The notes beneath the pieces were generated by a model. The model saw only the letters and a program-made list of their open reading frames with translations, was not told the origin of the DNA and ran no database searches. Source: Mobula birostris (Eukaryota). Taken from it: a stretch of 64,000 nt of DNA. A program made the position numbers and the translations under genes. Shown piece after piece: positions 27,347 to 62,305 of the stretch; the first letter of the stretch is position 1, and every line of letters begins with the position of its first letter. The stretch spans positions 22,359,939 through 22,423,938 of the forward strand of contig NC_092394.1 of NCBI RefSeq assembly GCF_030028105.1. Direction: 5' to 3'.

Positions 27347-27501
27347 ACACAGAAAATGCTGGGGGAACTCAGCAGGTCAGGCAGCATCTATGGAAAAGAG
27401 TAAAACGTCGACTATTTACTCTTTTCCATCGATGCTGCCAGACCTGAGTTCCTCCAGCAGTTTGTATGGGTTGCTTTTGATTTCCAGCATCTTTTGTGTT
27501 T
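27347..27501. mobile_element. Penelope-derived fold-back mini-element
   Basis: ~55-bp inverted arms (27347-27404 / 27415-27468) of the Penelope terminal sequence. Imperfect TSD gtatttggtaat / gtacttagtaat. Confidence 0.75.
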
Positions 27502-28482: not shown

Positions 28483-29866
28483 ATTTTCTGTTAGTTTAGA
28501 CCTGAAAGAGGGGAAGGAAGGAAAGGAATTAAAGGAAGGGAGAGAAGTGGAGGACTCTAGACCTGCTTCTGTAATGAGTTCCCTCAGCTACCGTAAACGA
28601 GGGAATATGAAGGATTCTCTCAGTGGTAAAAGTAATAATGATTCTCTTCTCTCAACACTAAGTAAAGAACGATCAATGTCACCCGAGAGATCATTTCGAA
28701 AAGCAAAGAAAGCCACCAGTACAGACAATTTAAATGACAGCTTTTCTACTACTTCATGGAAAAAACTCCAAGCAGCTGATGACTTGGATGATGGGGGATC
28801 TGTTATTTCTCAGGCATATTCAGAGGCAACGAGTAGAGCAAGGAAAGGATTAGATAGGAGATGGGCCTTGACCAGTCCTGACTTTGACAAAGCTTCTACT
28901 GTTTCAGTTCCTGTAAGCCGAGCTTCCATAAGACGTAGTTTGGAAGCTGACGATGATGCAAAATCATCTGTGAGTTTTGCTTTAACCAGTCCTCCATCCA
29001 GTTTGAGACGAAGCCTTTCAAGGCTCGATGATAATCATAGTGATGTGTACAGTCCAGTTAGTCCTTTGCTCAACCGTAGATCAGAATTAGGACTACAAAG
29101 CTCAACCCTTAGTCATTTAGACGCAAGATTATCCATTTCAAAAAGTAGATTTGGTGAGTTGGAAGATGATGATGCTGCACCAAGTGTGGCACTAAGTGAA
29201 AGGTCATTATATAGTCAGCACTCTGTAGGGCGAAGTTTCAGTGTTCCTCCCAGACCTAGATCATCTGTTTCAGATGAAGTGCCATCAGAAAGTTCTAATG
29301 TTAAGCCAGTAGGTCACCGGAATTATTTGGATCCAGATTTAGAGGCTGCCATTAATGAGGTTCTGGATTATAAACCAATTACATTTAAAAGAAGTAGTCT
29401 AGACCCAGAATCTGATGAGAATGAAGAAGAAATGAATAAGCAATCAACCAGCCTTCGAAGGTCATCATCCTCTTTAGATGTAAGTAAGTCCCAAAATAAG
29501 AAATGCAAAAGCAAGAAAAGCAGAAGTTCTGATTCTGAGTCATCCTCATCAGAAGAGGAGCACCGAAAGAAGGGCTCCAAGAAGCATTCTAAAAAGTCTA
29601 AGAAAAGATCAAGAAAGAAGGAAAGTGATTCTGAATCATCAGAATCATCCAGTTCCTCCTCTTCAGGCTCAACAGTCTCATATCGAAGTATCAACAGTGT
29701 CAAACGAAATGCAAAGAAAAGAGAAACTTATTCACAAGGTGATGATGGTAAGGAAGATAAAACAGATGAAAATTCTGGAAAGAAAATGAAGAAAAGTGAC
29801 AAGAAGAGAATGAAACAAGTAGACAGTGTGATGATGAAGTACTTGTACAGACCAGAGAGTGAATAA
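28483..29866 (+). CDS. MYO18A: MYO18A large alternative C-terminal exon, ~460 aa Ser/Lys-rich tail (Myo18A-gamma-like), ending VDSVMMKYLYRPESE*
   Basis: A long polypyrimidine tract and cag end at 28482. The phase-2 join to 28112 (AG+A = Arg) enters the 474-aa ORF 28442-29866 in frame. An uninterrupted 1.4-kb ORF in AT-rich DNA is unlikely by chance. The striated-muscle Myo18A-gamma isoform is known to have a long Ser-rich C-terminus. Confidence 0.85.
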
Positions 29867-30496: not shown

Positions 30497-32933
30497 AGAC
30501 CATAAGACATGGGAGCAGAATTGGGCCACTCAGCCCATTAAGTCTGCTCCGCCATTTCACATTGGCAGCTTTATTATCTTTCTCAAAACTATTCTCCTGC
30601 CTTCTCTCTGTAATCTTTACAGCCCTGACTAATCAAGAACCTATCAATCTCTGCTTTAAATATACTCAACGATTTGGCCTTCACAACTATCTGTGGCAAT
30701 AAATTCCGCAGATTCACCAGCCTCTGGCTAAAGAAATTCCTTATCATCTTTGTTCGAAATAGACATTCCTCTATTCTGAGTCTGCATTCTTTGGTCCCTG
30801 TTCCCTCAACACTACCCTGCCCCTCCACTATCTTTGTATCGTTGCAAATGTGGCCAGAAAGCCATCAATTCCATCATCCAAATCATTGACATACTGTGAA
30901 AAGAAGCAGTCCCAATACCGAACCATGCCAGACAACACTTCTCACTGCTAGCCAACCAGAATAGGCCCCATTTATTCCCTTCTGCCAGTTAGCCAATCTG
31001 CTATCCATGCTAGTATCTTTCCTGTAATACCATGAGCTCTTATTTTGTTAAGCACCCTCATGCATGTCACCTCGTCAATGGCCTTATGAAAATCCAAGTA
31101 AACAATATCCATTCTTTGCCTATCCTGCCTGTCATTTCCTCAAAGGATTCCAACAGATTTGTCAGGCAAGGTTTTCCCTTAAGGAAACTATGCTGACCTT
31201 AGCCTATCTTATCACGTACCCCCAAGTACCCAAAACGACATCTTTAATAATGGACTCCAGCATCTTCCCAACCACTGAAGTCAGGCTAACTATCCTATAA
31301 TTTACTTTCTTCTTAAAGAGCAGAATGACATTTGCAATTTTCCAATGCTGTGGAACCATTCCAGAATCTAGTGATCCCTGAAAGATTATTACGAATACCT
31401 CCACAATCTCTTTAACTATCGCTTTCAGAACCCTGCTGTGTAGTCCATCTAGTCCATGTGACTTATCCACCTTCAGACCGTTCAGCTTCCTAAGTACTTT
31501 CTTCTTAGAAATAGCAACTACACTCACTTTTGCCCCTGACACACTTGAATTTCTGGTATACTGTTGTTTTTTTTCCACAGTGAAGACTGATGCAAAATAC
31601 TTAAGTTCCATTTCTTTGTTCCCACGTTACTACCTCTCCAGTGTCATTTTCCAGCTATCCAAAATCCACTCTGGCCTCTTTTTTACTTTTTCTGTATCTG
31701 AAAAACTTTTCGTATCCTCTGATATTTTTGGCTCTGTTACCTTTTATATTTAATTTTTTCTCTCCTTATCGTTTGTTAGTTGCTTCTGTTGGTTTTTAAA
31801 ATTTTCCCAATCCTCGAACTTCCCACTAACTTTTGCAATATTGTATGCCTTCTCTTTTGCTTTTATACTACCGTTAACTTCGCTTGTCACCTTTGGTTGC
31901 CACACCCTCGCCTTAGAGTACATTTTCATCTTCGAGATGTATCTATCCTGCACCTTCCAAATTGTCCCCAGAAACTTCAGCCATTGCTGTTCTACTGTCA
32001 ACTCTCCTGCTGTCTCCTTCCATTTAATTTTGGCCAGCTCCTCTCTCATGCCTCTGTAATTCCCTTTACTCCACTATAATACTGACACATCTAACTTTAT
32101 CTTCACCCTCTCAAACTGCGGGGTGAATTCTATCATATTATGATCACTGCCTCCTGTGGATTCCTTTACCTTAAGCTCCCTATTCAAATCTGGTTCATTA
32201 CACAACATCCAATCCAGCCTTTCCCCTAGTGGGCTCAACCACAAGCTGCTCTAAAAAGCCATCCCATAGGCATTCTACAAATACCCTCTCTACCTACATA
32301 TAGAAATCCCCCTTGACTATCATAATATTATCCTTTTTACATGCCTTTTCTATTTGCCATTGAAATTTATATCCCATATCCTGGCTACTGTTCGAGGGCC
32401 TTCCATCAGGGCCTTTTTACCCTTGCGGTTTCTTAACATGACTCACAAGGATTCTGCATCTTTTGAGCTGATGTCATCTCTTTCTAAGGATTTGATTTCA
32501 TTTTTCTTAAACCAACAGAGCCACCCCACGTACTCTGCCTATATGCTTGTCCTTTCAATACAAGGTGTATTTCTCAGATGTTGAACTCCCAACTATGATC
32601 TTTTTTCATCCACAACTCTGATAACTACACCATCATACTTGCCAAGCTCTTAACTATGCTATAAGATCATCTGCCTTAATCCTTATACTGCATGCATTCA
32701 AATATAAAACTTTCAGTCCTGTATTCATCAACCTTTTTGATTTTGACCTCACGTTACACTTCATCTCATCCCAATGACTGCAATTTCATCCTGTCCATCC
32801 TCAGTCTCATTATACACTCCAATTTGTATACCAACTGCCCTGTCCCCAGCACTATCACTCTAGTTCCCATCCCCCTGCCAACTTAGTTTAAAACCTCTAA
32901 CAGCTCTAGCGAACATGTCCGCAAGTATATTGC
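30497..32933 (-). mobile_element. Degenerate CR1 LINE (end of ORF1, APE-RT, 3' end; internally deleted)
   Basis: ORF fragments 31204-31611 (NYRIVSLTSVVGKMLE), 31750-32049 and 30589-30828 (RNFFSQRLVNL). Confidence 0.85.
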
Positions 32934-34524: not shown

Positions 34525-35245
34525 GCACAAGAGATACTGTAGATGCTGGAAATCTCGAGCAGCACACACAATACTAGTGGAACTCAGCATGTCATGCAGC
34601 AATTATGGAGAGAAATAAATAATCAACATTTCTGGTTGATGAAGGGTGATGGTCAAGAACCATGAGATAATGTTGCAGCTCTGTAAAATTCTAGTTAGAA
34701 CACACTTGAGTTCTGCATTCAGTTCTGATCACCTCATTATACAATAGATGTGGAAGTTTTAGAGGAGAATTACCAGGATGTCAGCTGGATTGGAGGACAT
34801 GTCTTATGAGGAAAAGTTAGGCATGGTATGATATTTTTCTTTAGAGGAAAAGAGAATGAGAGGAGACTTGATAGTAGTGTACAAGATGATAAAAGGCTTA
34901 GAGTAGACAACCAGCATCTTTTCTCCAGGGCAGCAATGACTAATAGGAGAGGACATACTTTTAAGATGATTGGAGGAAAGTATATGAAGGATATCAGACA
35001 TGGGTTACTTACACAGTGAGTGGTGGTAGAGGCAGATAAATTAGGGACATTTAAGATAGGCACGTGGATGAAAGAAAAATGAAGACTGTGGGAGGGAAGG
35101 GTTAAGATTGAATTTGGAGTACTTTAAAATGTTGACACAATATCATGCGCCAAAGAGCCTGTACTGTACTGTACAGTTCTATATTTTATTCCCCTCCTTA
35201 GATACTCCCTGATTTGCTGAGTTTTCCAATATTTTGTGTGTGTAA
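34525..35245. mobile_element. Penelope fold-back remnant split by a CR1 3' fragment (~34655-35185, +)
   Basis: The left arm is at 34527-34645 and the right arm at ~35190-35243. A CR1 3' end lies between them. Confidence 0.6.
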
Positions 35246-38680: not shown

Positions 38681-39183
38681 ATACACAAAATGCTGGAGGA
38701 ACTCAGCAGGCCAGGCAGCATCCATGGGAAAAAGTACTGTCGACTTTTCGGGCTGAGACCCTTGTCATAAAAAAAGATGAGTAGATTTAAAAGGTGAGGG
38801 GAGGGGAGATTGAAACACAAGGTGATGGGAGAAACCAGGAGGGTTTCCATTTCCCATTCCTGTTTCCCACTCTCACCTTACCTCCTTACCTGCCCATCAC
38901 CTCCCTCTGGTGTTCCTCTCCCTTCCCTTTCTTCCATGGCCTCCTGTCCTTTCTTATCAGATCCCCCCTTCTCCAGCCTTTTATCTCTTTCACCAATTGA
39001 CTTCCCAGCTCTTTACTTCACCCCTCCCCCATCTCAGCTTCACCTATCACCTACTGCCTTGTATTTCTTCCTCCCCTCTCCCCACCTTCTTACTCTAACT
39101 TCTCAGCTTTTTTCTCCAGTGCTGATGAAGGCTGTTGGCCCAAAAATTTGTTTACTCTTTTTTCATAGATGCTGCCTGGCGCA
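38681..39183. mobile_element. Penelope-derived inverted-repeat element with two degenerate hammerhead motifs
   Basis: An inverted arm at 38681-~38835 and a sense arm at ~38850-39183, similar to 11600-11920. Hammerhead remnants lie at ~38738-38768 (-) and ~39117-39150 (+). Confidence 0.7.
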
Positions 39184-39189
39184 CTGATT

Positions 39190-40078
39190 TCACGTAGAGG
39201 TGTGCATTCTCCAAAGGACCTCAGTCTCCTCAGGAAGTAGAGCTGATTTGGCCCTTCTTGTACATAGGTTCTGTGTTGGTGCTCCACTCAAGTCTGTCAT
39301 CCAGGTGCACCCCCAGGTACTTGTGAGTCCTTACCACATTCATGTTCCCACCATCAATAGTGATGGAGCAGTGAACTTCCTAAAATCCATCACTATCTCC
39401 TTTGTCTTACTGATGTTGAGCTGCAGATAATTCAGCTTGCACCATTTGACATAGTCCTCCACCGGTGCACTGCATTCATCCTCCCGTCCTCCCTTCATAC
39501 ACCCAGCTATTGCAGAGTCATCAGAAAATATCTGCGGATGACATGACTCAGTGTTGTATCTCAAGCCTCTGGTATACAGGTAAACAGGAAGGGACACAAT
39601 ACAGTCTCCTATGGGGCCTCAGTGTTGCTTATCGCCATGTCTGACACAGCTCTGAAGCTACACAAACTGTGGTCTGCCATTGAGGTAGTCATTAACCAGG
39701 GTACAATGAAGTGCCAAGCTGCATTGAACAGAGTTTTTCCCTCAACAGTGAGGGCTGTATGCAATTGAAGGCACATGAGAAATCAAAAAACATGATCCTC
39801 ACAGTGCTGCACTGCTTATCCAAATGGGAGTAGGCTCTGTTCAGCAGGTAATTGACAGCATCATCGACTCCAATGTGCTCCTTGTAGGCAAACTGCAGGT
39901 GGTCGAGGGCTGATCTGACCAGAGGTTGGAGGTGAGCCAGGACCAACCTCTCTAGGGTCTTCATGATGTGTGAAAAAGGTACTGTAGTCATTCAAGACTT
40001 TCGGTTGGCCCTTCTTGGGTACTGTGACCACACATGATGTTTTCCATGCAGTCAGGACCCTTTCCAGGCTGAGGCTCA
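39190..40078 (-). mobile_element. Rex1/Babar-like RT fragment
   Basis: Motifs IMKTLERLVL...LQFAY...GVDDA...VRIMFFDFSCAFNCIQP and FSDD...LQLNISKTKEIVMDFRK. Confidence 0.85.
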
Positions 40079-43831: not shown

Positions 43832-46752
43832 TATAGAACGTATAGAACATAGAATGGTACAGCACAGTACAGGCCCTTCGGCCCACAATGTTGGCCCCTC
43901 TCTCCCATATAACCCCCCCCCACCTTAAATTCCTCCATATACCTGTCTAGTAGTCTCTTAAATTTCACTAGTGTATCTGCCTCCACCACTGACTCAGGCA
44001 GTGCATTCCACACACCAACCACTCTCTTGAGTAAAAAACCTTCCTCTAATAGCCCCCTTGAAATTCCTACCCCTTACCTTAAAGCCATGTCCTCTTGTAC
44101 TGAGCAGTGGTGCCCTGGGGAAGAGGCGCTGGCTGTCCACTCTATCTATTCCTCTTAATATCTTGTATACCTCTATCATGTCTCCTCTCATCCTCTTCCT
44201 CTCCAAAGAGTAAAGCTCTAGCTCCCTTAATCTCTGATCATAATGCATACTCTCTAAACCAGGCAGCATCCTGGTAAATCTCCTCTGTACCCTTTCCAAT
44301 GCTTCCACATCCTTCCTATAGTGAGGCGACCAGAACTGGACACAGTACTGCAAGTGTGGCCTAACCAGAGTTTTATAGAGCTGCATCATTACCTCGCGAC
44401 TCTTAAACTCTATCCCTCGACTTATGAAAGTTAACACCCCATAAGCTTTCTATACTACCCTATCTACCTGTGAGGCAACTTTCAGGGGTCTGTGTACATG
44501 TACCCCCAGATCTCTCTGCTCCTCCACACTACCAAGTATCCTGCCATTTACTTTGTACTCTGCCTTGGAGTTTGTCCTTCCAAAGTGTACCACCTCACAT
44601 TTCTCCAGGTTGAACTCCATCTGCCACTTCTCAGCCCACTTCTGCATCCATCAATGTCTCTGCAGTCTTTGACAATCCTCTACACTATCTACAACACCAC
44701 CAACCTTTGTGTCGTCTGCAAACTTGTCAGCCCACCCTTTGACCCCCACATCCAGGTCATTAATAAAAATCATGAAAAGTAGAGGTCCCAGAACAGATCC
44801 TTGTGGGACACCACAACCCTCCAATCCAAATGTACTTCCTCCACCACAACCCTCTGCTTTCTGCAGGCAAGCCAATTCTGAATCCACCTGGTCAAACTTC
44901 CCTGGATCCCATGCCTTCTGACTATCTGAATAAGCCTACCGTGTGGAACCTTGTCAAATGCCTTACTAAAATCCATGTAGATCACATCCACTGTACTACC
45001 CTCATCTATATGTCTGGTCACTTCCTCAAAGGACTCTATCAGGCTTGTTAGACACGATCTGCCCTTCACAAAGCCATGCTGACTGTCCCTGATTAGACCA
45101 TGATTCTCTAAATGCCCATAGATCCTATCTCTAAGAATCTTTTCCAGCAGCTTTCCCACAGATGTAAGGCTTACTGGTCTATAATTACCTGGACTATCCT
45201 TACTACCTTTTTTGAACAAGGGGACAACATTCGTCTCCCTCCAGTCCTCTGGTACCATTCTCATGGACAACGAGGACATACAGATCCTAGCCAGAGGCTC
45301 AGCAACCTCTCCCCTCACCTCATGGAGCAGCCTGGGGAATATTCCATCCAGACCTGGGGACTTTTCTACCCTAATGTATTTTAATAACTCCAATACCACC
45401 TCTTCCTTAATATCAACATGCTCCAAAACATCAACCTCACTCATATTGTCCTCACCATCATCAAGTTCCCTCTCATTGGTGAATACCAAAGAGAAGTATT
45501 CATTTAGGACCTCGCTCACTTCCACAGCCTCCAGGCACATCTTCTCACCTTTATCTCTAATTGGTCCTACCTTCACTCCTGTCAGCCTTTTATTCTTCAC
45601 ATAATTGAAGAATGCCTTGGGGTTTTCCTTTACCCTACTCGCCAAGGCCTTCTCATGCCCCCTTCTTGCTCTCCTCAGCCCCTTCTTAAGCTCCTTTCTT
45701 GCTACCCTATATTCCTCAATAGACCCATCTGATCCTTGCTTCCTAAACCTCATGTATGCTGCCTTCTTCCACCTGACTAGATTTTCCACCTCACTTCTCA
45801 CCCATGGTTCCTTCACCCTGCCATTCTTTATCTTCCTTACTGGGAAAAATTTATCGCTAACATCCTGCAATGGATCTCTAAACATCGACCACATGTCCAT
45901 AGTAAATTTCCCTGCAAAAACATCATCCCAATTCACACCCGCAAGCTCTAGCCTTATAGCCTCAGGATTTGTCCTTCCCCAATTAAAAATTTTCCTGTCC
46001 TCTCTGATTTATCCTTTTCCATGATAATGTTAAAGGCCAGGGAGCAGTGGTCACTGTCCCCCAGATGCTCACCCACTGAGAGATCTGAGACCTGACCCGG
46101 TTCATTACCTAATACTAGATCTAGTATGGCATTCCCCATAGTTGGCCTGTCAACATACTGTGACAGGAATCTGTCCTGAACACACGTAACAAACTCTACA
46201 CCGTCTAAACCATTGGAACTAATCAGGTGCCAATCTTAACTTAAGGAAGTTACTCATGATAACTTAAGTCACTCATGATAACAACCCTGTTATTTTTGCA
46301 CCTTTCCAAAATCTACCTCCCAGTCTGCTCCTTGGTATCTCTGCTGCTACCAGGGGGCCTATAGAATACTCCCAATAGAGTAACTGCTCCCATCCTGTTC
46401 CTGACTTCTACCCATACTGACTCAAAAGAGGATCCTGCTACACTACCCACCCTTTCTGTAGCTGTAATAGTATGCCTGACCAGTAATGCCACCCCTCCCC
46501 CCCTCCCCCCCCCATCCCTTTTAAAGCACTGAAATCCAGGAATATTGAGAATCCATTCCTGCCCTGGTGCCAGCCAAGTCTCTGCAATGGCCACCACGTC
46601 ATAATTCCATGCATGTATCCAAGCCCTCAGTTCATCACCTTTGTTCCTGATGCTTCTTGCATTGAAGTACACGCACTTTAGCCTTTCTACCTTACTACCT
46701 TTACACCCTTTATTCTGCTTCTCTTTCCTCAAAGCCTCTTTATATGTTAGAT
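43832..46752 (-). mobile_element. Relatively young CR1 LINE, nearly complete ORF2 (APE + RT) with a few lesions, nested in an older CR1 (~43520-47060)
   Basis: Motifs LKCVYFNARSIRNK, ETWL, LDLVL...GDSDH, YMDFSKAFDKVPH, GVPQGSVLGPLLF and FADD. A (ttctatg)n tail lies at 43832-43853. Confidence 0.95.
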
Positions 46753-49172
46753 ATATTCACATAATCAATGCCCCTCATGATTTTATACACCTCCACTAGA
46801 TCACTCTTTATTTTCCAATGTTGGAATAAATAAAGTCTTGGCTATTTCAGCCTGACTCTTTTACTCAGTCCCTTGAGTCCAGCAACACACTGCACTCTTC
46901 ATAGCTTAATGGCAACTTTCTGAAAACAGGATGATCAAAATTTAACATTAATCCAAATGCAGTCTCACTAATACCTTGTACAACTGCAATATAACATTTT
47001 AACTTCTATACTCAGTGCCCAAACTGCTAAAGACCAGCAAGGCAAAAGCCATCTTCATTTCTGCTGTGTTGTAGCAATATAACCCCTCATAATCAGATCA
47101 TCTTTGAGATAATATTCCAGAACTTTTTATTCCTTATATGTACAGTTTAGCCTTATCACTCATCTATGAAAACCAAGTCTAACTTTTGAGTCAAAATTAT
47201 TCTTTGATTTGTATTTACATCATGATAAAACTCTAGTCAGCCCTACTTGCTTCATGCAACCCAGTATATTTATTTAACTACATCAAAGTTGCTGGTGAAC
47301 GCAGCAGGCCAGGCAGCATTTCTAGGAAGATGTACGGTCTGGTTAAACCTCTCCTTCCCTTTCCCTCCCCCCAACCTTCTTACTCTGGCTTCTTCCAGTG
47401 ATATCAAAGAAAATTACTTCCATCTTACTGCAGTATTGATCTGTGTGGCATCATCACAACCCAATAAAACTGAAAATTGAGGACAAAATGAAAATGCTCT
47501 AGGGGTTGGAGCCATACCTCGCACAAAGGAGGATGTCTATGGTTGTTAGAGGTTGATCATCCCAGCACTAAGACATCTCTGTGGGAGTTCCTCTGGCCCA
47601 ACAAATTGCTGTTCAATGGAAGTAGTTTTCCTTCCATTAGAAAGGTCAGAAGTGGAAACTTAACTGATTATAAAATGCTTAGTTCCATTTTCAGCAAGTG
47701 AAGCACCTCATACAGTACAACCAAGGCCAGATTTAGGAAAGGGTAGTATATAATAGTTAATCTACAAAGTGCAAGGCAATGGCCATTTTCATGAACAGCC
47801 ATTCTAATCATTTAAATTTAACAATCAATCACATTTCCATTGCAAAATCCTATCATCAATGAACTGGGAGGTCATACAAAATTTAACTGAACCAGCCACA
47901 CATAAACATGGGTCACAAAGTTGGCACTGCAACAGGAATACTCCTCATTTGACTAGATTTATGCAGCTCCAACAAATCTCAGGAAGCCTCACACCACCCA
48001 GGTCAAAGTTGCCCACTTGATTAACACCAGATTTATTATAATCCGTCCTTTGCCTCCATCATTGGCACACAATGGCTGCACCAATGGTAGTACCTAAAAA
48101 ATGCACTGAGACTCACCCAGGCACCTAAATGCACCTCCTAAATCCACAATCTTTACAATCAAAGAGGACAGTGGTTGCAAGCACATGGTTACAGCTTCAC
48201 CTCCATCCTAGCCTGGAACTGTCTCAGTTCCTTTATCAATTCCAAATCCTGGAGAGCTTTGCCCAATAGCGTTGTGGGAGCGTTTTCATCAGGATTACAG
48301 AGGTTCAAGAAAGCAGTGCACTGGCAATTTCTCATTGGCATTTAGGGATGAGCAATAATGCCCAATGACGTTTTTAGAATGTTCATCAATTTCAGTTATT
48401 CCCTGTGCCATCAGGCACATTGGGTGGCAACCTTGCCGTTCCTTTAGTATTTGTCTGTTTTACAAGGCCGAGTTGCTAGCTTGGTACTGAACCCAGCATG
48501 GGTGGTACTCATGCAAGGAGTCATCAAGTTCAATGCAAATAAAACCTTACAAAGTCAACAGACGCCTAACAACATACCAGTTATATAATGTTACAAGCCA
48601 ATGCTGAACAAGCACATTGTAAATATCTGCTTGCATGTAAATAAATACATTCAATTGATCTTTGTTGCCATACTGGCCAGTTAAATAAGCAAAAATATAC
48701 ATTACCAGGTTTGTGAATCTCTTGTTACTTTATCTTGAATAACACACACCTTCACCTTCTGTCCTTTTTGTTTCTGCCAAAAAGGCTTAGAGGAAGGAGA
48801 ATCATGATCAACCTTCTCTACTGCCAAAGGCAATTAATTCTATATTTGGGAGTGACCATATTTAATCTGGTAGGGATGGTAACCCATCTTTTTATTCTCT
48901 GGGCAGGAATATCCCTTCAACAGTTTCCAGTACTGCACAGCTGAGATCATGAACATGGTCTAATGCAGGTTTAGTCCTGCCTCTTTTCACACTTGCTCAA
49001 ATTTATGATTATTAATAAAAGTAATGACACAGGAGGCAGCTATTCAATCATTCAGGACAATGCCAGTTACTGACGTTCAATCACATCACTCTCACTCCTC
49101 ATCTCCTTATTATCATGTATCTATCTCTACAGCTTGTTTTCTCTCACACAAGTCCATAAACTCTGCTGATTA

Positions 49173-49331
49173 AGACAAGAAAATGTGCAGATGCTGGAAA
49201 TCCAAGCAACCCACATGAAATGCTGGAGGAACTCAGCAGGTCTGGAAGCATCTATAGAAAAGAGTAAATAGTTGACGTTTCGGGCCGAGACCCTTCGTCA
49301 GGACTGGGGGAGAAAAAAAGCAGCAATCAGC
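49173..49331 (-). mobile_element. 159-bp Penelope-derived mini-element with perfect 14-bp TSD
   Basis: TSD aactctgctgatta (49159-49172, 49332-49345). The body is the Penelope terminal sequence, including the hammerhead motif. Confidence 0.88.
49269..49306 (-). ncRNA. Minimal type I hammerhead ribozyme motif (intact catalytic core)
   Basis: The minus strand reads cagtc-CTGACGA-A-GGGT-CTCG-GCCC-GAAA-C-GTC-aact. It has both conserved boxes, a 4-bp stem II, palindromic ACGT stem III and a GUC cleavage triplet (49276-49274). Confidence 0.8.
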
Positions 49332-49859
49332 AACTCTGCTGATTACCCCAGGGAATCGTTCACAGTAGACAATTAATCTATTAACAGATCATTGGGAAAT
49401 GGGAGGAAATCTGGAGGAAACCCACACAATCAAGTGAAAGCATACTAATTCCACACAGCAATCATCCCAGTCTCTGGAGCAATGAAGCAGCAGTACTACC
49501 TGCTACACCACTTCATTTAGTATTGGAATGATGAAATAGAAACATGAAATGTTATTATTGTACTTAATTTTTATAAGATTGTTTTGAAAGTAAAATGTTT
49601 ATTTGCCACCTATCAATGTTCCTTTTTTACCTCTGAGTAGGATTTCCAGATGATTCCATCAGTAGCAGAACATTAAACTAAAGCCATTACTTTATCCACT
49701 TGTCAATGATTCCAAATACAGGGATACATTTATTGTGTTATACAGCACAGAAACAAGCCCTTTGGCTGAACTCTTCCATGCTACATCACCCCATTAGCAT
49801 TTGGCTCATATCCCTCTAAGCCTTTCCAATCCACGTAGCTATCGAAATAGTTTTATTTA

Positions 49860-51122
49860 AGACCATAAGACATAGGAGCAGAATTAGGTCATTTGGCCCA
49901 TTGACTGTTCTGCTATTACATCATGGCTGATTTATTATCCCTCTCAATCGCATGCTCCTATCTTGTCCCTGTGACCTCTGACCACAGGATTAATCAAGAA
50001 CCTATCAACTTCCACCTTAAGTATACCCAATAACTTCACCTGCCCAATCATCTATGGCAATGAATTCCATAGATTCACCACCCTCTTCCGAAAGAAATGT
50101 TCCTCATCTTTATACTAAGTGGATATCCCTCAATTCTGAGCTCTGCCTTCTGGTCCTAGACTGCCCCACTAGAAGAAACATCCTCTCCATATCCATTCTA
50201 TCTAGACTTTTCTATATTCAATAGGTTTCAATGAGATTCCTCTTCATTCTTCTAAATTCCAGCGAGTACAGGCCCAGAACCATCAAATACTCGTACTCCT
50301 CATGTGTTAACCCTTTCATTCCTGGGATCATTCTTGTGAACCTCCTTTGGACCATCTCTAATGCCAGCATGTATTTTCTTTGCTAAGGGGCCCGAAACTG
50401 TTCATAATACTCCAATCCAATCCCTTATAAAGCCTCAGCATTACACTCTTGTTTATGTATTCTAGTCCTCTTGAAATGAAGGCTAACATTGCATTTGACT
50501 TCCTTAGCACTGACTCAATCAGTAATTTAACCTTTAGGGAATCCTGCACAAGGACTCCCAAGTCCCCTTGCACCCTCAATTTTTAAATTTTCTTTCCACT
50601 TAGAAAATGGTCCATTTCTTTATTCCTTCTGCCAAAGTGCATGATCATACACTTTCCTACACTGTATTCCATCTGGCACATCTTTATCCATTCCCCTAAT
50701 CTGTCCAAGTCCTTCTGCAGACAACCACTTCCCGATCACTATCTGTCCCTCCACCTATCTTCGCATTATTTGCAGCACATAGGCAGCAATTTCTTCATCC
50801 AAATCATTGATATATAATGTGAAAAGAAGTGGCCCCTACACTGACTCCTGTGGCACACCACTCATCAATGGCAGCCAACCAGAAAAGGCCCTCTTTATTC
50901 CCGCTCTTTGCCTCCTGCCAGTCAGTCAGTCGTCTATCCATGCCAGTAGCTTTACTGTAATGCCATGGTCTCTTACCTTGTTAAGTAGCCTCATGTGTGG
51001 CACCTTGTCAAAGGTCTGAAAATCCAAATAAACAACATCCACTGACTCTCCTTCGTCTACCCTGCCTATTATTTCCTCAAAGAACTCCAACAGCATGGTC
51101 AGGCAAGATTTTCCCCTTTAGA
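49860..51122 (-). mobile_element. CR1 RT/3' fragment nested in an older CR1 (~49740-51430)
   Basis: ORF 50358-50579 (DLGVLVQDSLKV...LAFISRGLEY) and a 3' tail cttatggtctt at ~49858-49870. Confidence 0.8.
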
Positions 51123-54100
51123 AATATAATTATACCTGGTTCTACCACCTCCTTAGGCAGCTTTTTCCACATGTCTACTGACCTCTGTGTGAAAAACAGA
51201 TCTTTAAGTCTTTCCCTCTTGCCTTAAATCATCGCCCTCTGGTTTTAAATTTCCTGATCCTAGCAAAAAGAAACTCTCTATTCTCTTCAAATTTGTCAAC
51301 ATTTATAAGGTCACTTCCCAGCCTCCTTTGCTCCAGGGAAACCAGTCCCAAACTATCCAGCCTCTCCTTACAACTTAAGCCCTCCAGTCTTGGCAATATC
51401 CTTGTGGATATTTTCTGCACATTTACCATTGTCAAGCATTAAAGCATTGTCAAGCATCCTTGTAATAAAAGAAAAAGCAAATAAAAACTGCAGATGCTAC
51501 CAACGTGAAATAAAAAACACAATATGGTGGAAATACTTAAAATGTCAGTGACATCCACATTCTGGGAATGAGCAAAAGAAAAAGCTAAGATTAAGTATCT
51601 GGTGATACTAAATTTCAGCACAATCCATTTTAGACTCTTGTCTTTTAAGAGTTATTGCCTAATTTTCTGCCATTATCTTTGCGGTGATGATGATAGAGGC
51701 AAATTATTTGTATCCCCAAAGAAAACTGCTGCAAAAGAAACAGAAAATGCTGGAAATACTCAGCAAGCCTGGCAACATGTGCAGAGAGAGAAGCAGAGTT
51801 AGTATTTCAAGTCCATGGTCTACAGTCAGAATCCAGCTACAGAGCATTTCAATCTAAAAGTATGTGACAGACTTGGCATACATGGTAAGTTCTCGTGAAT
51901 CCAGCAATGGATTCTACTTGAATGCATATTTTTCTTCTAAATTATCTCTGTATTTATGTGACATGGTGGAATGATTTGGCAACAAAATATGCTGAGTTTT
52001 GGAACATAGGTTCTAAGTTAGTCTCTGAACTATAGGATGACAAATCTCAGTTCTGTTACAACAAAAAAAAAATACAGTGCTAAGGCCGATGTTTACTTGG
52101 ACAGAGAATTGTTAAGAAAAATCCTTGAATTTTATTGGATTTCTTTCCCATCTAGCTCATAGTCCAGGTACGAAGGACTAACTGAAGAAAATATTGTGAT
52201 TAAATGAGAAAAGTTTGCTTTAAAAATAACTCAACCAACTTTAGCTGGGATTAACAGGGATCCTAATAATTACAATGCTCACTTCACTGAAGGTAAGGGC
52301 TGATGGTAACAAGCAACTGCTGCTGCGAACTGACGTCTTTATGATACTGATGCCATAATATGAAATAAATTACAAGAATCAAATTGGGCACATTCCAATC
52401 ACAGAAAATTGCAACATGGAATGACTTCCAGCAACCTTCCAGGCTGGGTTAGCAATTTTACTCTCTAAAATTTCATTATATATATGTTAATTTTATGGTT
52501 CAACAGAAAAAAGTTATTTATATGAGCATTATTCCAAATGTTTTGAGTTTCACATTTTCTGATTAGTGTCCTATCACTTATTGATGTTCCCTTCCACCTA
52601 AACCCCAGGCAGTTATATTTTTGATTCGGTACCATCCTAACGAGTCACATCAGTTTGCAAGCAAAAGCACCAAACCGTACACTTGGATATACAGCTGCAA
52701 GGTTTATTTTTGCATTAAGTCCACCATAGAGCTTCCACGAGGATTGATAAAAATTTAAACTGGCCTGAGGTGCATCAGTTTTGTCTTAAGATTTTCAGTT
52801 GAGGGAGCCATGGAGGCTAACAAATCCTACAGTGACAATTCTCAATCCAGTGAACCTAATAACTTGCTGTTCTCACTCTATACTCATGGATGCTTGCAAG
52901 CAAAATTGTGAGCTGAACTTAGAATACAGTGAGCATTTTAATAATTAGGATTGATGTTACCTTATAAAATAGGTTCTACTTTGAAGAAAGATTAAAAAAA
53001 AACAAAATGAAGAATCCTGATGAAAGATGCTATGGTCTCAGGGACATTGAATGACTTGCTTAACAAGGCCAACATGAGGACTACAGACTCTCATACAGAT
53101 GGAGCAGCGGGTGTATTCCTTACAGTATCAGAATTAGGTTTAATATCACTGGCATAGGTCATGAAATTTGTTGTTTTGCGGGAGCAGTACATTAAAATTA
53201 TAGTAGGAATAATATCAGTAGTAGTAAAAACTATAAATTACAATAAGAAGTAGTATGTAAAAACAAATTAAATAAGTAGTGCCAAAAAAGAGGAAAAATA
53301 CCTAAGAAGTGTTTGTGGTTTCCTTGTCCATTAACAGAAATCAGAAGTTATCCATTTCACTGCACGTGCATAGCTTTTATGTCCTTCTCATGAGCTTTGA
53401 AAACCTCCTTCTCCACTGACTCAATTAAAGATGTTGCATCTTTTTAACGAGGCTTTGAACACATTCTTTGTAAGCTCTGCCTATGGCAAAAGCATGCTCT
53501 AATGATGGGTGGGATAAAATTCTCCTTATCACTCTTCATCAAATGATTTAGAAAGTTAACTGGCTGCTTTTCTCTCCTTGCCTTACCAGGACCCTTCATA
53601 ATTTTGAACTTCTCTGAGATTACAAATAACCAGAGACAGTAAAGAAAATAAAGACTTTTACCTTCTCCATCCCCTTTTCGAAGTAATGCCTCTCTTCAAA
53701 ACAATTATGTATTCCTGTTCTCATTCTGTTCTTTCTGAAACAATTAACTCAAAACTGAATACACTACTGATTTGTACAGCAATACCAAGCATTGAGTCCA
53801 ATAGGCATCTGCTTTAAAAAGGAGTTCCTTGTTTACGGCGTCCCAAGATATCATAACTAATGGAAAAAATGGCTCACTAATTGAGAAAACAAATCTTATC
53901 TCTTATTGCTTTAAGTATAAGTGAATAACAGAGAGAAGCCTGGATTTTTTTTTTTGCCACTAAACTGACAGACTTTTAAATTAAAAGAAAACAATAATCT
54001 CTTAGGCAAGTTACATAAACTTAAATTGTAAAAGGCAGCTACTTAAGTGTGCCTTTAATTTTTTCTCTTATTGAGCAATTTTATAATTCTAAGTTAGCAG

Positions 54101-54564: not shown

Positions 54565-57500
54565 ATCCCTGATGATTACACCTGCCAGAAGTGCATCTAG
54601 CTGCAGCTTCTAATAGACCGTGTTAAGGACTTGGAACTGGATGAACTCCGGATCATTTATGAGGCTGAGGTGTTGATAGACAGGACATAGAAGGAGGTCA
54701 TTACACCCAAGGTGTAGGATGCAGGTGACTGTCTGGAGGTGTTAAGGGGATAGGCAGCCAGTACTGAGTACCCCTGTGGCATTTCACTTCAGCAACAGGT
54801 TTCACCTTTGAATACTATTGGGGGAATGACCTAGCAGACGAAAGTCACTGCGGTCAGGTGTCTGGCACTGAGTCTGGCTGTGTGGCTCAGAGGGGAAGTG
54901 GAGAGAAGGGGAGTGCTGTAGTGATAGGGGATTTGTTGTTTAGGGGTACAGAGAGGAGTTCTGTGGATTAGAACAAAATTCCTGGGTGCCAGAGTCAGGG
55001 ATATCTCAGATTGAATCCACAGCTTTTTTTAAGTGTGAGGGTGAGCAGCCAGAGGTCATGGTCCATGTTGGTACCAATGAATTGTGTAGGAGGAGTGGCA
55101 ATCTGCTGCAAAGTGAGTTCAAGGAGTTAGGTCCGAAGATAAAGGGCAGGACATCCAGTGTTGTGTTCTCAAGAATGCTACCCATGCCACATGCTAGTGA
55201 GGTCAGAAATAGGAAGATCATTCAGTGTAACATGTGGCTAAGGAGTTGGTGCAGGAGAGAGGGCTTCAGATTTTGGATCTTTGGGTTTTCTTCCTTGGGA
55301 GGTGGGACCTCTACAGAAGAGCACCTGAAATGGGGAGGACTAATATCCCAACAGGAAGGTTTACTTGTGCTGTACGCAGAGGTTTAAACTAGAGTTGGAG
55401 GGCAATGGAAACCAGAGTACCAGAACAGGACGTGGAGTGGTTGTGGAGAAATATGTTGTTAAGCCTACATACAAAGTCAGGAATCAAAAGGTTGAGCGTG
55501 GTGGGGCTGATGTTCTGAGCTATGTATAGTTCAATGCAAGGAGTATTGTGGGAAAGACAGATGAGCTTATGGCATAGATCAGCACATGGAATTATGACAC
55601 TGCAGCCATTAGTGAGACTTGGTTGCAGGAGAAGCTGGTCTGGCAGCTCAGTGTTCCTGGGTTTCATTATTTAAGATGTGATAGATTGAGAAGGATTAAA
55701 GGGGGAGGCGTGGCATGACAAGTCTGGGAAAATCACCACAGTACTCAGTCAGGGCAGACTGGGGAGCTTGTCTAGTGAGGCTTTATGTGTAGAAATGAGG
55801 AATAAGGAAGGTATGACTACATTAATGGGATTATATTATGGACCACCCAACAGGATTTAGAGGAGCAAATTTGTCGAGGGATCACAGACTGTTGTAAGAA
55901 ACACAAGGTTGTGATAGTAGGTGATTTTAAGTTTCCACATACTGGGACTCCCATACTGTAAAAGGGCTGGATGAGAAAGAGCTTGTCAAATGTGTTCAGA
56001 AAAGTTTCCTTAACCAGTACACAGAAGTCCCAACTAAAGAATGTGTGATACTAGATCTCCCATTTGGGAATGAAACAGGGTAGGATATAAAAGTTTGTGT
56101 AGGGGAGCACTTTGCATCTAATGATCATAATCCCCTTAGTTTCAAGGTAATTATGGAAAGGGATACGTCCAGTCCTTGGGTTGAGACGTTAAATTAAAGA
56201 AAGGCCAATTTTGATGGTATTAGAAAAGATCTGACAATTCCGAATTGGGATAGATTGTTTTCTGACAAAGGTGTACTTGGTATGTGGGAGGTCTTCAAAA
56301 GTGAAATTTTGAGAGTACAGAATTTTTATATTCCTGTCAGAATAAAAGGCAAGGACAACAGGTTTAAGGAACATTGGTTTGGGAGATATTGAGACCCTAG
56401 TTTAGAAACAAGAGCTGCATAACATGTATAGGCAGGCAGGAACAAATGAGGTACTTGAATAGTATAAGAAATGCAAGAAGGAAATCGAAAGGGCTAAATG
56501 AAGGCATGAGGTTACCCAAGCAGACTAGGTGAATGAGAATCTGAAGGGCTTCTACAGATACAGTATATTCAGAGCAAAAGGATAACAAGGGACAAAATTG
56601 GTCCTTTGAAAGATCAGAGTGGTAATCTATGAGTGGAGCCAAAAGAGATGGGGGAGATTTTCAATTGATTTTTTGCATCTGTATGCCATTTGAGAGATGG
56701 ACACAGATTCTATAGATGTGAGGCAATGCAGCAGTGAGGTCATTGACCCTATACAATTACAGAGGAGGAGGTGTTTGCTGTCTTGAGGCGGGTAAATCCC
56801 CAGGGCCTGACAATGTGTTCCCTTGGACCGTGTGTGATGCAAAAACTGAAATCACAGGGACTCTATCAGAGATATTTTAAACATCCTTAGCCATGGATGA
56901 GATGCCGGAGGATTGAAGGATAGTTAGTGTTGTTCCATTGTTTAAGAAAGATTCTAAGAATAAGCCAGGAAATTATAGGCCGGTGAGCCTATAATCTTCA
57001 GTAGTGGGAAAGTCTTTGGAAGGTATTCCAAGGGACTAGATATATACAGTAAGTATTTGGATAATTAGGGACAGATTAGGGATAGTCAACATGGCTTTGT
57101 GTGTAGTAAGTCATGTCTAACTTATAGAGTTTTTTCAGGAAGTGACCAGGAAAGTTGATAAAGCCAAGGCAGTGGATGTTGTCTACTTGGACTTTAGAAA
57201 GGCCTTTGACAACCCAAATGTAAAGATAGTAAAGAAGGTTTAATTGCTTGGTAGTAAATTCGATTCGATCTTGGCTTCACAGAACAAACTGAAGAGTGGT
57301 TCTAGATGGTTGTAGACCTGTGACTAGTGGTTTACCACAGGGATTGGTGCTGGGTCTGTTGTTGTTTGGCATCCATATCAATGACCTGAACGATAATGTG
57401 GTAAACTGAGTCAGCAAATTTGTGGATAACAGCAAGATTGGGGGTGTAGTGGACAGTGAGGAAGACTATCAAAGTTTGCAGTGAGATCTGGACCAACTGG

Positions 57501-58390
57501 TGAAATGGGCTGAAAATGGCAATTGTTATTTAATCAGACTAGTGTGAGGTGTTGTACTTTGGGAGGAGAAACAAGGTAGGTCTTAAACAGTGAGCAGTAT
57601 TGCACCGAGGAGGGCAGTAGAGAGAGGGAACTGGGAATACAGATCCATAATTCCTTGAAAGTGGCACAACAGATAGGGACATAAAGAAAGCTGTTGGCAT
57701 ACTGGCCTTCATAAACTATATACTAAGTGCAGGAGTTGGGCTGCTATGTTGAAATTGTTATGTTGGTGAGTCCTAATTTGGAGTGTACTTTATACTTTAT
57801 TGTCGCCAAACAATTGATACTAGAATGTACAATCATCATAGCAATATCTGATATTGAATGTTGTGTTCAGTTTTGGGCACCTATTTGCTACAAAGATGTA
57901 CAGTAAGTAAGATGGAAAGAGTGCAGAGAAAATTTACAAGGTTGTTGCTGGGACTTGAGGGCTTGGATTACTGGGAAAGGTTGAATGGGTTGGGACATTA
58001 TTTATCAGAATGTAGAAGATTGAGGAAGTATTTGATAGAGGTATACAAAATTATGAGGAGTGTAAATAGGGTAAATGTAAGCAGGCCTTTACCACTGAGG
58101 TTGGGTGAGACTACATCTAGAAGTCATGAATTAAGGGTGAAAGGTGAAATGTTTAAGGGGAACATGAGGGGAAACTTCTTCACTCAGAGAGTGGTGAGAG
58201 TGTGGAATGAGTTGCCAGTGCACATGGTTGATTTCAACATTTAAGAGAAATTTGGATAGGTACATGGATGGGAAGGGAATGAAGGACTATAGTTCAGGTG
58301 CAGGCTGAAAAGGTTAGGCAGATTAATGGTTCAGCTTGGACTAGATAGGCCAAAGGGCCTGTTCTGTGCTGTAGCAGTCTATGGCTTTGA
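54565..58390 (+). mobile_element. Near full-length degenerate CR1 with ORF1 (Zn-finger + SGNH esterase) and ORF2
   Basis: PDDYTCQKC at ~54568. Esterase motifs VVIGD and VMVHVGTNE are present (the latter in ORF 54986-55387). APE and RT remnants run to RGNFFTQRVVRVWNELP (ORF 57858-58244). Confidence 0.88.
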
Positions 58391-59288
58391 TTCTAATCAT
58401 TGGTACACAGCAGGAGGGATGTCCTATTGTAATTATGAACAACTTTGATAAGAATGACCACACCTTCAGTATTGTGTGCAGTTTTGAGACCTTAACTGAG
58501 GAGGGATGGTTTTGCTATGAAGGGAGGGAAGAAATTGTTCAGCAGAGTGACTGATGAGTGAAGAGATATGAAATTACCTCGATGAGAATTGAGAACAATG
58601 AGAGGGAATTATTGGATACATGAGATATGTGAAGCACGTTCCTGATGGTGATAGAAATCAAGACCAGAAGCCAGAGTCTAGGGATAAATCGTAAACTATT
58701 TTTGACTGAACTTAGGGAAAATTTCTTTATTCAGAATGTTGTGAACCTGTAAAATCTTCTGCTGGAGAAGGCAATTGAAGTTATATCATTAAATCTATTC
58801 AAGGATTTAGCTCCAGTTCTTAGGGATAAGGTCAGGGGAAATGTGAAGACAGTAGGAATAGCCTGGTGAATTTGGATGATCAGACTTGATTGTGTTGAAT
58901 AGCTTTTATTGCCCCTAATTTTATGCTGTTTCCAGTGAGCAATATTACAGGGGAAATCTGACTTATAAAAAACACTCTTAGCACATCTTTGACAAGCTAT
59001 GAGTTTTCCGAATTGATCTACTATAAACCAATGTTAAGGGTGGTCTAGTTAGTTAATCATAATTGTAGCTGTGCTTTTGGCTTATTGAGGGGATCTCATT
59101 GAAACCTATTGAATATTTGAAGGCCCAGATAGAATGGATGTGGAGGGTATGTTTTCTATAGTGGGGGAGTCTAGGACTAGAGGGCACAGCCTCAGAACAC
59201 AAAGACATCTCTTTAGAGCAGAGATGATGAGGAATTTCTTTAGCTAGAGGGGGTGAATCTTTGGAATCAATAATGTGGAAACTAAGTC

Positions 59289-60820
59289 ATAAGACACAGA
59301 AGCAGAATTGGGTCATTTGGCTCATTGAGTCTGCTCTGCCATTCAATCATGGCTGATCCTTTTCTCCCATCCTCAGCCCCACTCCCCAGCCTTCTCCTGT
59401 GGTAACAAGTTCCACAAATTCACCACCCTCTGGCTAAGGAAATTTCTCCACATCTCTGTTTTAAATGAACCCCTCTCTATCCTGAAGCTGTGCTTTCTTG
59501 TCCTAGACTCACCCACCATGGAAAACATCCTTTTCACATTTACTCTGTCTAGGCCTTTCAACGTTCTAAAGATTTCAATGGGATCTCCCCTCATCCTTAT
59601 AAATTCCAATGAGTACAGATCTAGAACCATCAAACGTTCCTCGTATGATAGCCCTTTCATTCCCAAAATCATCCTTGTGAACTTCCTCTGAACCATTTCC
59701 AGTGCCAGCACATCTCTTCTTAGATGAGGAGCCAAAAATTGTTCACAATACTCAAGGTGAGGCCTCACCAGTGCCTTATAAAGCCTCAGCATCACATCCC
59801 TGCTCTTATATCCTAGACCTCTTGAAGTGAATGCTATTATCATCCTAGGGTGTTCTGCACAAAAGAGTCCCAAGTGCCTTTGCATCTCAGATTTTTGGAT
59901 TTTCTCCCTGCTTATAAAATAGTCTGCACAGTTATTTCTACTACCAAAGTGCATGACCATGCATTTTGAACATTGTATTTCATTTGCCACTTTCTTGTCC
60001 ATTCTCCTAATCTGCCCTTATGCAGCCTACCTGTTTCCTCAACTCTACCTGCCGCTCCACCAACTTTCATATCTAGAAAGTTGGCTACAAAGCCATCTAT
60101 TCCATCATCTAAGTCATTGAAGTAGATCATAAAAAGAAGTGGTCTTAACACAGACCCCTGTGGAACACCACTAGTCACTGGCAGCCAACCAGAAAAGAAT
60201 CCTTATTCCCACTTGCTGCCTCCTACCAATCAACCAACGCTCTAAGTTACATGCAAGTAACTTTTCTGTAATACCATGGGCTCTTCACTTGGTAAACAGC
60301 CTCGTGTATGGCAACTTGTTAATGGCCTTCTGAAAATCCAAACACACAACATCCACTGCATTCCCTTTATCTATCCCACATGTAATCTCCTCAAATATTT
60401 CCAATAGGTTCATCAGGCGAGATTTTCCTTTAAGAAAATCATGCTGGCTTTGTCCTATCTTGTCCTTTGTCACCAAGTCCCCAATAACCTCATCCTTAAC
60501 AATTGCCTCCAACATTTTCCCAAACACTGAGGTCAGGCTAACTGGTCTATAATTTCCTTTCTGCTGCCTTCCTCCTTTTTTAAAGAGTGGAGTAACATTT
60601 GCAATTTTCCATTCCTCTGGCACCATGCCAGGGACCAATGATTCTTGAAAGATCATTACTAATGCCTCCTCAATCTCTATCGCTACATCTTTCAGAACTC
60701 AAGGGTGCAGTTCATCTGGTCTGGGTGACTTGTGTACCCTTAGGTTTTTCAGTTCTTTGAGCACCTTCTTCCTTGTAATAGTAACTGCACTCACTTCTCT
60801 TCCCTCATACACTTCAAAAT
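59289..60820 (-). mobile_element. CR1 RT/3' fragment inserted in a + strand CR1 3' end (~59085-60975)
   Basis: ORFs 60285-60656, 59912-60178 and 59373-60002 carry CR1 RT motifs. The host CR1 resumes at ~60822. Confidence 0.88.
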
Positions 60821-62119
60821 TTATATTTACAACAGATTGATTAATAAGGGGGTCAAAGATTATGTCAAGGCAGGAGAATGGGGTTGAGAGGGATGATAAA
60901 TCAGCCATGATGGACTGGCAAAGCAGACTCTAAGGGCCGAAGGAGCAAAATTAGGCCATGTGTCTTACAGTCTTAAATCAGAAATACTGACAATGTAGAC
61001 TGAGTATTTCCTCCTCTTCTTCCTTTGCTGCTTTAGAACAATTGACTTTGCTATCCAAAAATTTGGTAGTTGGATTTTCCATTTTATGGCAAGTTAAAGG
61101 CCTACTGTTCTCTAAAGTATGTACATTTCTCCTCCTGAGATCAACTCATGCCAGTTGTCAATTCTACAAGATCTCTGGTGGCCAGCAACCGTAATATGAT
61201 TAAGGTGTCATGGAGGCAATCATATTGAGCAGCAAACAATAATTAATACAGCAAACTGGGGCAATAAAAAAAGTTCTTAACTAATACCCTAAACATTTTA
61301 CAGAGGACAGATACAAAGATTGATGTTGAAGCTGAAATACAATGTTAAGCTTCCTTAAGGTTGTTATAGCCTGGGGTGGTACTAGGGATAAGCTCCCACT
61401 ATCTATTAAATGCTCCCAATGGCATGCATCTCAAGTTGCCTCTGACAACCAAATATAGCTCCTGGCCTTCACGTGTGGCTTAGCTACTAAGCCCAGCGGA
61501 ACCATTTCTACTGACAGAAGGGGCAAGGACAGGTGACCGGTGCCTTAAAACCAATCACTTCTGACAGATGGGGCTCATCTGCTGTGGTTGACAGCTCATC
61601 AATGAGAAGGAAAACTCTGATCTCAACTCTGCTGTCTTGCGGCTGTATCCATTCATTGTGAAGGCTTCGGGAGTAAATCTCGAGGGGAAAAAAAATCTGG
61701 AACTGGAGTCCCTAAGACTGTCCGACATTGATTTTAACACTGATTGGCAACTCCTGTGACATCGCTGGTGCCAAAGTGTATTGGCCTCTGCCATTGCTTT
61801 GGATGCATCAGCTGTGTGGAGAAGGGGAATGTGCTACATGAGCAACAGCTTTCCCTCCATATAACCCTAGCCTGGTTTGTGTATCATGTAGACAGCTCGG
61901 ATGCAACATCCATGGTCGACCCTGACCAACTGACACCCTCAGAACAATATTAAATATATTTAAATTTTTTTAGGTAATTGTATTCCATGTGCAAGAAATG
62001 TATTTTAGTAGAGATCGAAGGTTTGTAAGATCTAGTTATAGCTAGAAATACAAAATATTGTCATGTATACCTTATGGAACATTTTCAGGGTATTTACAGC
62101 AAAATAATTAAGGCAAGGA

Positions 62120-62305
62120 TCACATAAGAAATTCAGCAGATGCAGGAATTCTTGAGAAACACACACAATGTTGGAGGAACTCAGCAGTTCAGGCAGCATC
62201 TATGGATAGGACTGCTGTAGGGTGTAGGCTCGAAACACTGAGTTTATTCCTTGCCATAGGTGCTGCCTGACCTGCTGAGTTCCTTCAGCACTTAGTGTGT
62301 GTCAC
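62120..62305. mobile_element. Penelope-derived fold-back mini-element with 11-bp TSD
   Basis: Inverted arms ~62160-62205 / ~62254-62302 and TSD taaggcaagga (62109-62119, 62306-62316). Confidence 0.8.

Follow-up and report, generated by a model that had tools for sequence, protein, structure and literature searches.

A 159-bp hammerhead-bearing insert in the Mobula birostris genome, read as the truncated 3' end of a Penelope-like element

Minimal hammerheads are mostly single motifs and are probably related to truncated Penelope-like elements (PLEs) (PMC4209133). Scattered minimal hammerheads as truncated PLE ends are a kind known since 2014 (PMC4209133; PMC8557442). Among the PLEs, the Neptune/Nematis elements are marked by a CX2-5CxxC linker before the GIY-YIG domain (PMC8557442). 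The Penelope promoter sits in the pLTR, and an intron follows soon after the start (PMC2377424); in Drosophila virilis, the Penelope intron ends at helix I (PMC4209133). The protein of an Anolis PLE cuts and extends both target strands in vitro, and its RT starts at two internal sites bounding the tail, on a template RNA that is unprocessed (PMC11167929). Retrozymes, by comparison, consist of a defined monomer with a hammerhead, repeated in tandem, and give rise to circular RNA (PMC7229834; bioRxiv 2026.07.22.740005). Their hammerhead is a canonical type I motif in which loop 1 contacts loop 2 (PMC7229834), and bioRxiv 2026.07.22.740005 also admits minimal motifs. What PLE hammerheads do, and how tails and inverted arms arise, are named as open questions in the literature (PMC8557442; PMC11167929).

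Here we describe an insert at positions 49173-49331 of a single 64-kb window, the whole stretch of DNA that was analysed; the data were read directly from this window, and all family statistics rest on those 64 kb. We consider the insert to be the 5'-truncated 3' end of a Neptune/Nematis-type PLE, likely inserted by the GIY-YIG endonuclease and RT that the element itself encodes, with the hammerhead as a likely dead passenger (probability about 0.8). A module that also ends a copy with PLE coding sequence, a TSD, a tail, a broken stem I and CpG decay throughout the family support this reading. A search of the open literature, with subscription journals, Repbase, Dfam and supplements outside its scope, found no paper devoted to this ray PLE family; the supplements of PMC4209133 and bioRxiv 2026.07.22.740005 may list shark or ray motifs.

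Architecture and surroundings of the insert

The insert consists of 159 bp and is flanked by a perfect 14-bp TSD, AACTCTGCTGATTA. The left copy (49159-49172) adjoins the 3' side of the element and the right copy (49332-49345) its 5' side, the two being exact repeats to which no strand is assigned. Its TSD score of 14 compares with a best score of 10 among 150 random positions, so that the TSD-bounded insert of the preliminary description stands as first given. Exact 14-mer pairs 60-400 bp apart occur five times in the window, three of them within a single microsatellite, one at 35180/35568 and one as the TSD of the insert. The pair at 35180/35568 was considered as the TSD of another family copy (copy G) and was ruled out by structure. 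An empty site, which would prove the TSD through an uninserted allele, was not found among the 15 of 106 contig joints that were listed. Run X5 (record 24), from a second species, spans the right junction, which indicates that this copy is old; X5 covers 29 letters over the left junction and X9 covers 13 over the right, both below the 31-letter bar. A contig over the left junction from X11, a run that may be RNA, was left out of account.

In element sense, on the minus strand, the insert is composed of a 9-nt filler, less than 20 nt of UTR (a pyrimidine tract with CAG), a 38-nt hammerhead, a downstream module of about 56 nt and a tail of about 40 nt. The earlier characterisation as little more than a hammerhead cassette is not borne out by these proportions: the hammerhead accounts for 38 of the 159 bases, the downstream module and tail for about 96, the upstream UTR for about 16 and the filler for 9. 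The filler (49323-49331, minus strand) repeats the target DNA next to it in inverted orientation, forming a perfect 8-bp hairpin on the plus strand and one of 10 bp with G-T pairing on the minus strand; perfect 8-bp hairpins like it number seven in the 64 kb. Among the 5' junctions of R2 insertions, one known class arises by snap-back synthesis, with cDNA or nearby target DNA as the template (PMC11371274), and by this analogy the filler is likely the product of snap-back synthesis templated by the target.

The conserved module 3' of the hammerhead occupies 49213-49268 on the minus strand. By analogy with the Anolis element (PMC11167929), we infer that it is a putative recognition and initiation region for the RT. 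In a covariation analysis the named stems scored no better than shuffles, a test made uninformative by the neutral decay of the copies, and the folding z-scores of the 3' module range from -1.38 to +1.19 in five copies. The tail (49173-49212, minus strand) is an optional 3' extension of about 40 nt, whose approximate bounds come from comparison of arms and from loose contig ends at 49178 and 49218. It is present in arms A, E2, F, J, L and N1, and in part in G, and is missing from C, E1, H1 and N2.

Upstream of the hammerhead, the UTR remnant (49304-49322, minus strand) is an acceptor-like pyrimidine tract ending in CAG, which aligns with the UTR of copy H2 to -17. The CAG overlaps the 5' strand of stem I. 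The tract with its CAG (49304-49319, minus strand) has counterparts on the plus strand at 11810-11825, 39105-39119 and 47380-47393; in all four copies that keep upstream sequence (the others being C, H2 and K2) it lies on the 5' strand of stem I or directly beside it. Splicing at this CAG would alter stem I; the site is a candidate acceptor only, and the tract is retained in the present copy. A second acceptor-like site, consisting of a pyrimidine tract, TAG or CAG, and then ATG, is located at 49249-49268 (minus strand), about 22 nt past the cleavage site, and is common to most other copies, younger and older. This ATG was rejected as an ORF start: the frame is not conserved through the tail, and a search with the 30-residue frame gave two unrelated matches. 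For annotators, these PLE repeats call for caution, as they carry acceptor-like sites and enter predicted ray proteins.

The wider surroundings contain two myosin-XVIIIa-like exons on the plus strand, at 12210-12350, which we take to belong to myosin-XVIIIa, and at 28388-29866. The latter is a long serine-rich terminal exon conserved across vertebrates, with its best protein match in skate and relatives named myosin-XVIIIa. Together with the Mobula and Hypanus matches of a PLE frame (10873-11484), this suggests a ray-like cartilaginous fish as the host. The insert is situated about 19 kb downstream of the serine-rich exon, amid LINE-like remnants, and inspection of 63 frames by eye showed no host coding exon near it. 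Many LINE-like RT remnants that resemble one another, presumably CR1/L2, are found at 15000-16200, 30500-31600, 44000-46800, 49850-51450 and 56900-61000. A broken Gypsy-like LTR retrotransposon occupies 16600-22200 (minus strand); by eye, its frames include a gag zinc knuckle, a protease, RT, RNase H and an integrase-like part. At 49736-49772 lies a short fragment of a different high-copy repeat, which in other contigs is frequently joined to the PLE end.

A minimal hammerhead core with a decayed stem I

The hammerhead occupies 49269-49306 on the minus strand and follows the minimal type I arrangement. Read from the letters, it consists of the 5' strand of stem I (49306-49302), the CTGACGA core (49301-49295), an extra A after A9 (49294), stem II (49293-49282) and GAAAC (49281-49277), after which come a loopless palindromic helix III and C17 (49274), with the cleavage site between 49274 and 49273. 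The CUGANGA / GAAA / UH core around stem II is present, as are the extra base after A9, the G10.1-C11.1 pair and the palindromic 15.2-16.2 without loop 3. A minimal-hammerhead descriptor applied to both strands of the window found two sites with core and stem II, of which only this copy has the loopless helix III; shuffled windows gave a mean of 0.04 and a maximum of 1 (50 shuffles). Letters and descriptor scan together confirm the complete minus-strand core that had been described, and the core, extra base and loopless palindromic helix III identify it as a minimal type I hammerhead of the PLE kind. An Rfam search at E<=1 returned no hammerhead and two weak unrelated matches.

Stem I retains three of its five pairs. 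The C-A mismatch at pair 1 was described correctly, but the damage extends further, with a second C-A mismatch at pair 5. On the plus strand, the majority letter at 49273 is C in 73% of contig depth in X1, 70% in X5 and 73% in X9, all three being DNA-type runs, which supports the proposed CpG decay at pair 1. At 49269 the plus-strand majority letter is likewise C (72% of depth in X1), and the family majority letters at both mismatched positions restore the pairing of stem I. Other CpG sites of the core are decaying family-wide too, such as 49282, which differs in 44% of contig depth in X1. The GTCGAC said to be kept by the copies at 2954 and 11854 is present at both; the copy at 2954, however, is broken inside stem II and has no CUGANGA core, and that at 11854 is the end of a 1,088-bp PLE remnant.

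Going by established hammerhead structure, the lost pair beside the cleavage site and the lack of a helix III make activity unlikely. We regard the hammerhead of this copy as a passenger that is likely dead. Folding does not mark the monomer as unusually stable (z of -0.63 and +0.79). Several contigs from three runs contain joints of 49302-49306 to 49265-49275, where the upstream edge of the hammerhead meets the cleavage-site region with few letters in between; these are possibly small tandem duplications of the core.

PLE identity, copies in the window and cDNA stops

The PLE origin is most readily seen in copy C (10837-11924, plus strand), a 5'-truncated PLE of 1,088 bp with a 12-bp TSD containing one mismatch. 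It opens with a tail inverted at the 5' end (10837-10872), followed by the end of an ORF (10873-11484), a pyrimidine-rich UTR and the hammerhead, with C3 at 11829. The ORF end encodes a CX4CxxC linker, CKRDKCYTC (11083-11109), in agreement with the CX2-5CxxC form, and a GIY-YIG region with internal cysteines (11170-11241), both on the plus strand. It is 84% identical to a PLE-derived Mobula protein and 78% to a Hypanus protein, and its longer homologs carry RT, with GIY-YIG at the C terminus. The ORF fragment by itself gave no Pfam match, and no RT-coding sequence of the family is present in the 64-kb window, the RT being known here only via homologs. The hammerhead and downstream module of the insert also end copy C, where they are contiguous with PLE coding sequence. 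The earlier attribution to PLEs is thus supported by a shared module that adjoins a GIY-YIG-encoding ORF end.

A profile built from the window copies gave 19 matches at E<=1, grouped into 14 events, or one event per 4.6 kb; the reversed-window control gave one match at E=0.91. Contigs matching the family numbered 46,054 (X1), 53,797 and 37,217 in three runs, in which depth is not equal to copy number. Copy A (2858-2972, minus strand) is a tail-bearing fragment of 115 bp, cut off in stem II and bounded by an 8-bp TSD. Copy F (34525-34647, minus strand) is a tail-bearing arm; by eye, it ends at its 5' side in an 11-nt inverted piece of the hammerhead core (34636-34647) that resembles a twin-priming product. 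Copies B, E, H, K and N form head-to-head pairs, to which copy C with its inverted tail may be compared. Copy N (62123-62305, 183 bp) joins a tail arm and a no-tail arm from the hammerhead edge within a 14-bp TSD with one mismatch, and copy E (27347-27503) is joined near the cleavage-site palindrome and has a weak TSD. By alignment, copy H (38683-39195) has arms reaching about 84 and 250 nt into the UTR, and copy K (47280-47400) combines an arm ending at the cleavage site with an inverted UTR piece (-56 to about -2), the core being missing.

Clear TSDs are found in four of the 14 events, with lengths of 14, 14 (one mismatch), 12 (one mismatch) and 8 bp; those of 8 and 12 bp are within reach of the null score, yet are placed at the repeat boundary. 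The TSD-bounded inserts measure 115, about 157, 159, 183 and 1,088 bp and differ in internal make-up. Beyond the window, pattern scans of viral contigs and of metagenomes gave no copies. A looser pattern yielded 26 metagenome and 16 prokaryote loci, which we dismissed as chance: two of the 42 had a match of 22-35 bp and none a PLE protein match.

To describe where the cDNAs stop, we scored 18 curated arms, omitting the tail-only arm of copy C and the inverted inner pieces of K and F. Their 5' ends span -956 to +38 relative to core C3. Fifteen of the 18 stop between -21 and +40, at 0.0245 per nt in this zone versus 0.0024 per nt upstream (P=1.8e-5), a comparison in which the zone was drawn post hoc, paired arms are not independent and the 5' ends, placed by visual curation, are uncertain for seven old arms. 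Among the younger arms, eight of 11 stop in the zone (P=8e-4), and the longest arms stop at -84, -250 and -956. The earlier view that the copies are more than random truncations holds to the extent that truncation is not uniform, with a stop rate ten times that upstream in a post hoc zone of about 60 nt; heavy-tailed truncation alone raises early stop rates. The stops are spread across the zone: ends within 5 nt of C3 are seen in three of the 18 arms, the window shows no sharp RNA end, and the insert itself runs past the hammerhead edge. We think that preferential stops in this 60-nt zone around the hammerhead probably hold genome-wide. A pile-up of contig ends at 49303-49308 (peak 49305) was discarded as a stop site, being confounded by subfamily divergence; the loose-end consensus matches the copy C UTR at 13 of 16 letters.

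Mode of insertion and relation to described systems

The two-site internal RT starts observed in vitro (PMC11167929) and the promoter in the pLTR (PMC2377424) lead us to a model in which the target primes reverse transcription at the tail site, a cDNA of 150 nt is made and the 5' junction is repaired by snap-back. The endonuclease would nick the target of the insert 14 nt apart, and the plus-strand 3' end at 49172 would prime cDNA from the tail start site. This cDNA, about 150 nt long, would cross an uncleaved hammerhead and stop some 21 nt upstream of the core, after which the free end of the target would snap back, copy 9 nt of itself and be joined to the cDNA. Priming on both target ends would give the head-to-head pairs. 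As the likeliest cause of the stop zone we tentatively name run-off where the RNA would have its 5' end, near the hammerhead. The RT would start internally, about 100 nt 3' of the hammerhead, on the 5' module copy of a pLTR-initiated RNA and would reach the RNA 5' end within 100-150 nt; only starts on the 3' module copy would yield inserts as long as copy C. With considerable doubt, we put forward the idea that the mass of short copies are integrated, strong-stop-like run-off cDNAs. They would end where the RNA has a definite 5' end, located at the hammerhead or slightly upstream, and either the start of transcription or processing at the pyrimidine-CAG that overlaps stem I would fix this end.

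Several other explanations can be weighed against these observations. Purely random, steep 5' truncation by a poorly processive RT, with the hammerhead zone merely where short cDNAs happen to end, agrees with 5' ends scattered over 60 nt plus a long tail (-84, -250, -956) and with the highly 5'-truncated state known for PLEs (PMC8557442; PMC8969392). Against it, about 7-9 stops were expected in the 50 nt before the zone (+90 to +40), where none of the seven tail-primed arms stops. Planted 60-nt pieces were recovered in 20 of 20 cases at 0 and at 10% extra divergence and in 8 of 20 at 20%, a control that is partly circular in that the profile was built from the same copies; we hold random truncation to be a possible but doubtful cause. 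Self-cleavage of the hammerhead could instead set the 5' end, the short copies being cDNAs of the 3' cleavage product, and two of the 18 arms (K1 and E1) do end within 2 nt of the cleavage site. Yet 14 of 18 arms, that of the insert among them, cross the site uncut, and insertion by the Anolis PLE did not need cleavage, with no reads ending at the site (PMC11167929); we hold this explanation to be highly improbable. Recombination between the two repeats of a longer element could also leave behind a solo pLTR, which would keep its TSD, and solo pLTRs are described for PLEs (PMC3846280). The UTR homology between C and H, however, extends at least 250 nt upstream while the insert retains less than 20 nt, and the filler, being templated by the target, speaks for a junction of primary integration; we judge this origin highly improbable.

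The preliminary description had raised a further alternative, a large family of short ribozyme units of retrozyme type. Its abundance holds, the copies being very numerous and mostly short; a recurrent short unit, by contrast, did not emerge. The 5' boundary is not shared among copies, the inserts of 115-1,088 bp with 5' ends from -956 to +38 define no monomer length, one event of 14 (the present insert) passes the hammerhead descriptor, and the motif occurs in none of the 21 tandem-repeat rows of the 64-kb window. The loopless helix III and the absence of an Rfam match also depart from a canonical type I hammerhead, in which loops 1 and 2 are in contact. On the features assessed within the 64 kb, the insert fails retrozyme membership. 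A dedicated non-autonomous unit, retrozyme- or SINE-like, with its own masters, cleaved as dimers and mobilised in trans by the PLE protein, could draw on the predominance of short copies, with 10 of 14 events stopping in the hammerhead zone, on a few head-to-tail joints such as that of 49305 to 49218 in 9 X1 and 10 X5 contigs, and on the proposed derivation of retrozymes from pLTRs (bioRxiv 2026.07.22.740005). Against it, these joints are of low depth (summed depth at most 152 versus about 10 for single-copy flank, among the 15 of 106 joints listed) and may be ordinary partial tandems, and copy H2, of the same type, has a UTR homologous to that of the ORF-bearing copy C. We judge such a unit improbable.

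Read as a truncated PLE end, the single locus is of little weight: it is old, likely dead and one of a great many such fragments. The family, in turn, is a resource: one insertion every few kb lets stop sites, priming sites and junction types be counted at scale. Were run-off the cause of the stops, the genome would be a fossil map of the PLE RNA 5' end, the tails and head-to-head pairs would be explained, and the role of the PLE hammerhead would be open to direct test.

Among described systems, the Neptune and Nematis EN+ PLEs share with the window family a C-terminal GIY-YIG with internal cysteines, the CX2-5CxxC linker and a hammerhead-bearing pLTR module; in both, a tail of 30-40 bp may be present at one end or the other, 5'-truncated arms occur in inverted orientation and the TSD varies in length (8-14 bp in the window) (PMC8557442, PMC3846280). 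The window family differs in its very high density, and in 5' ends concentrated around the hammerhead, a concentration that we did not find described in the available parts of those two papers. The minimal hammerheads of metazoan PLEs likewise have an extra base between 9 and 10.1, the G10.1-C11.1 pair, and a palindromic 15.2-16.2, and are mostly single scattered motifs; their stem I is short, as is that of the insert as far as its three remaining pairs show (PMC4209133). Compared to the Schistosoma motifs, with a stem II of 7-8 bp, stem II is shorter here (4-5 bp), and the hosts named in the available text of that paper did not appear to include cartilaginous fishes (PMC4209133). The overlap of the CAG with stem I recalls the intron end of Drosophila virilis Penelope (PMC4209133). 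Poseidon of Anolis carolinensis (PAc) resembles the family in that two 3' end points, with a tail between them, lie about 60-100 nt downstream of the hammerhead (PMC11167929). PAc belongs to another clade without the CX2-5CxxC linker, which the window family has, and its ORF starts at stem II (PMC11167929), whereas no conserved frame was found through the module in the window. Metazoan non-LTR retrozymes, like the insert, are short and non-coding, with a type I hammerhead, a relation to pLTRs and a TSD of more than 4 bp; they are, however, tandem monomers giving circular RNA, whereas the insert stands as one copy, has a broken stem I and comes from a family with variable ends (PMC7229834; bioRxiv 2026.07.22.740005).
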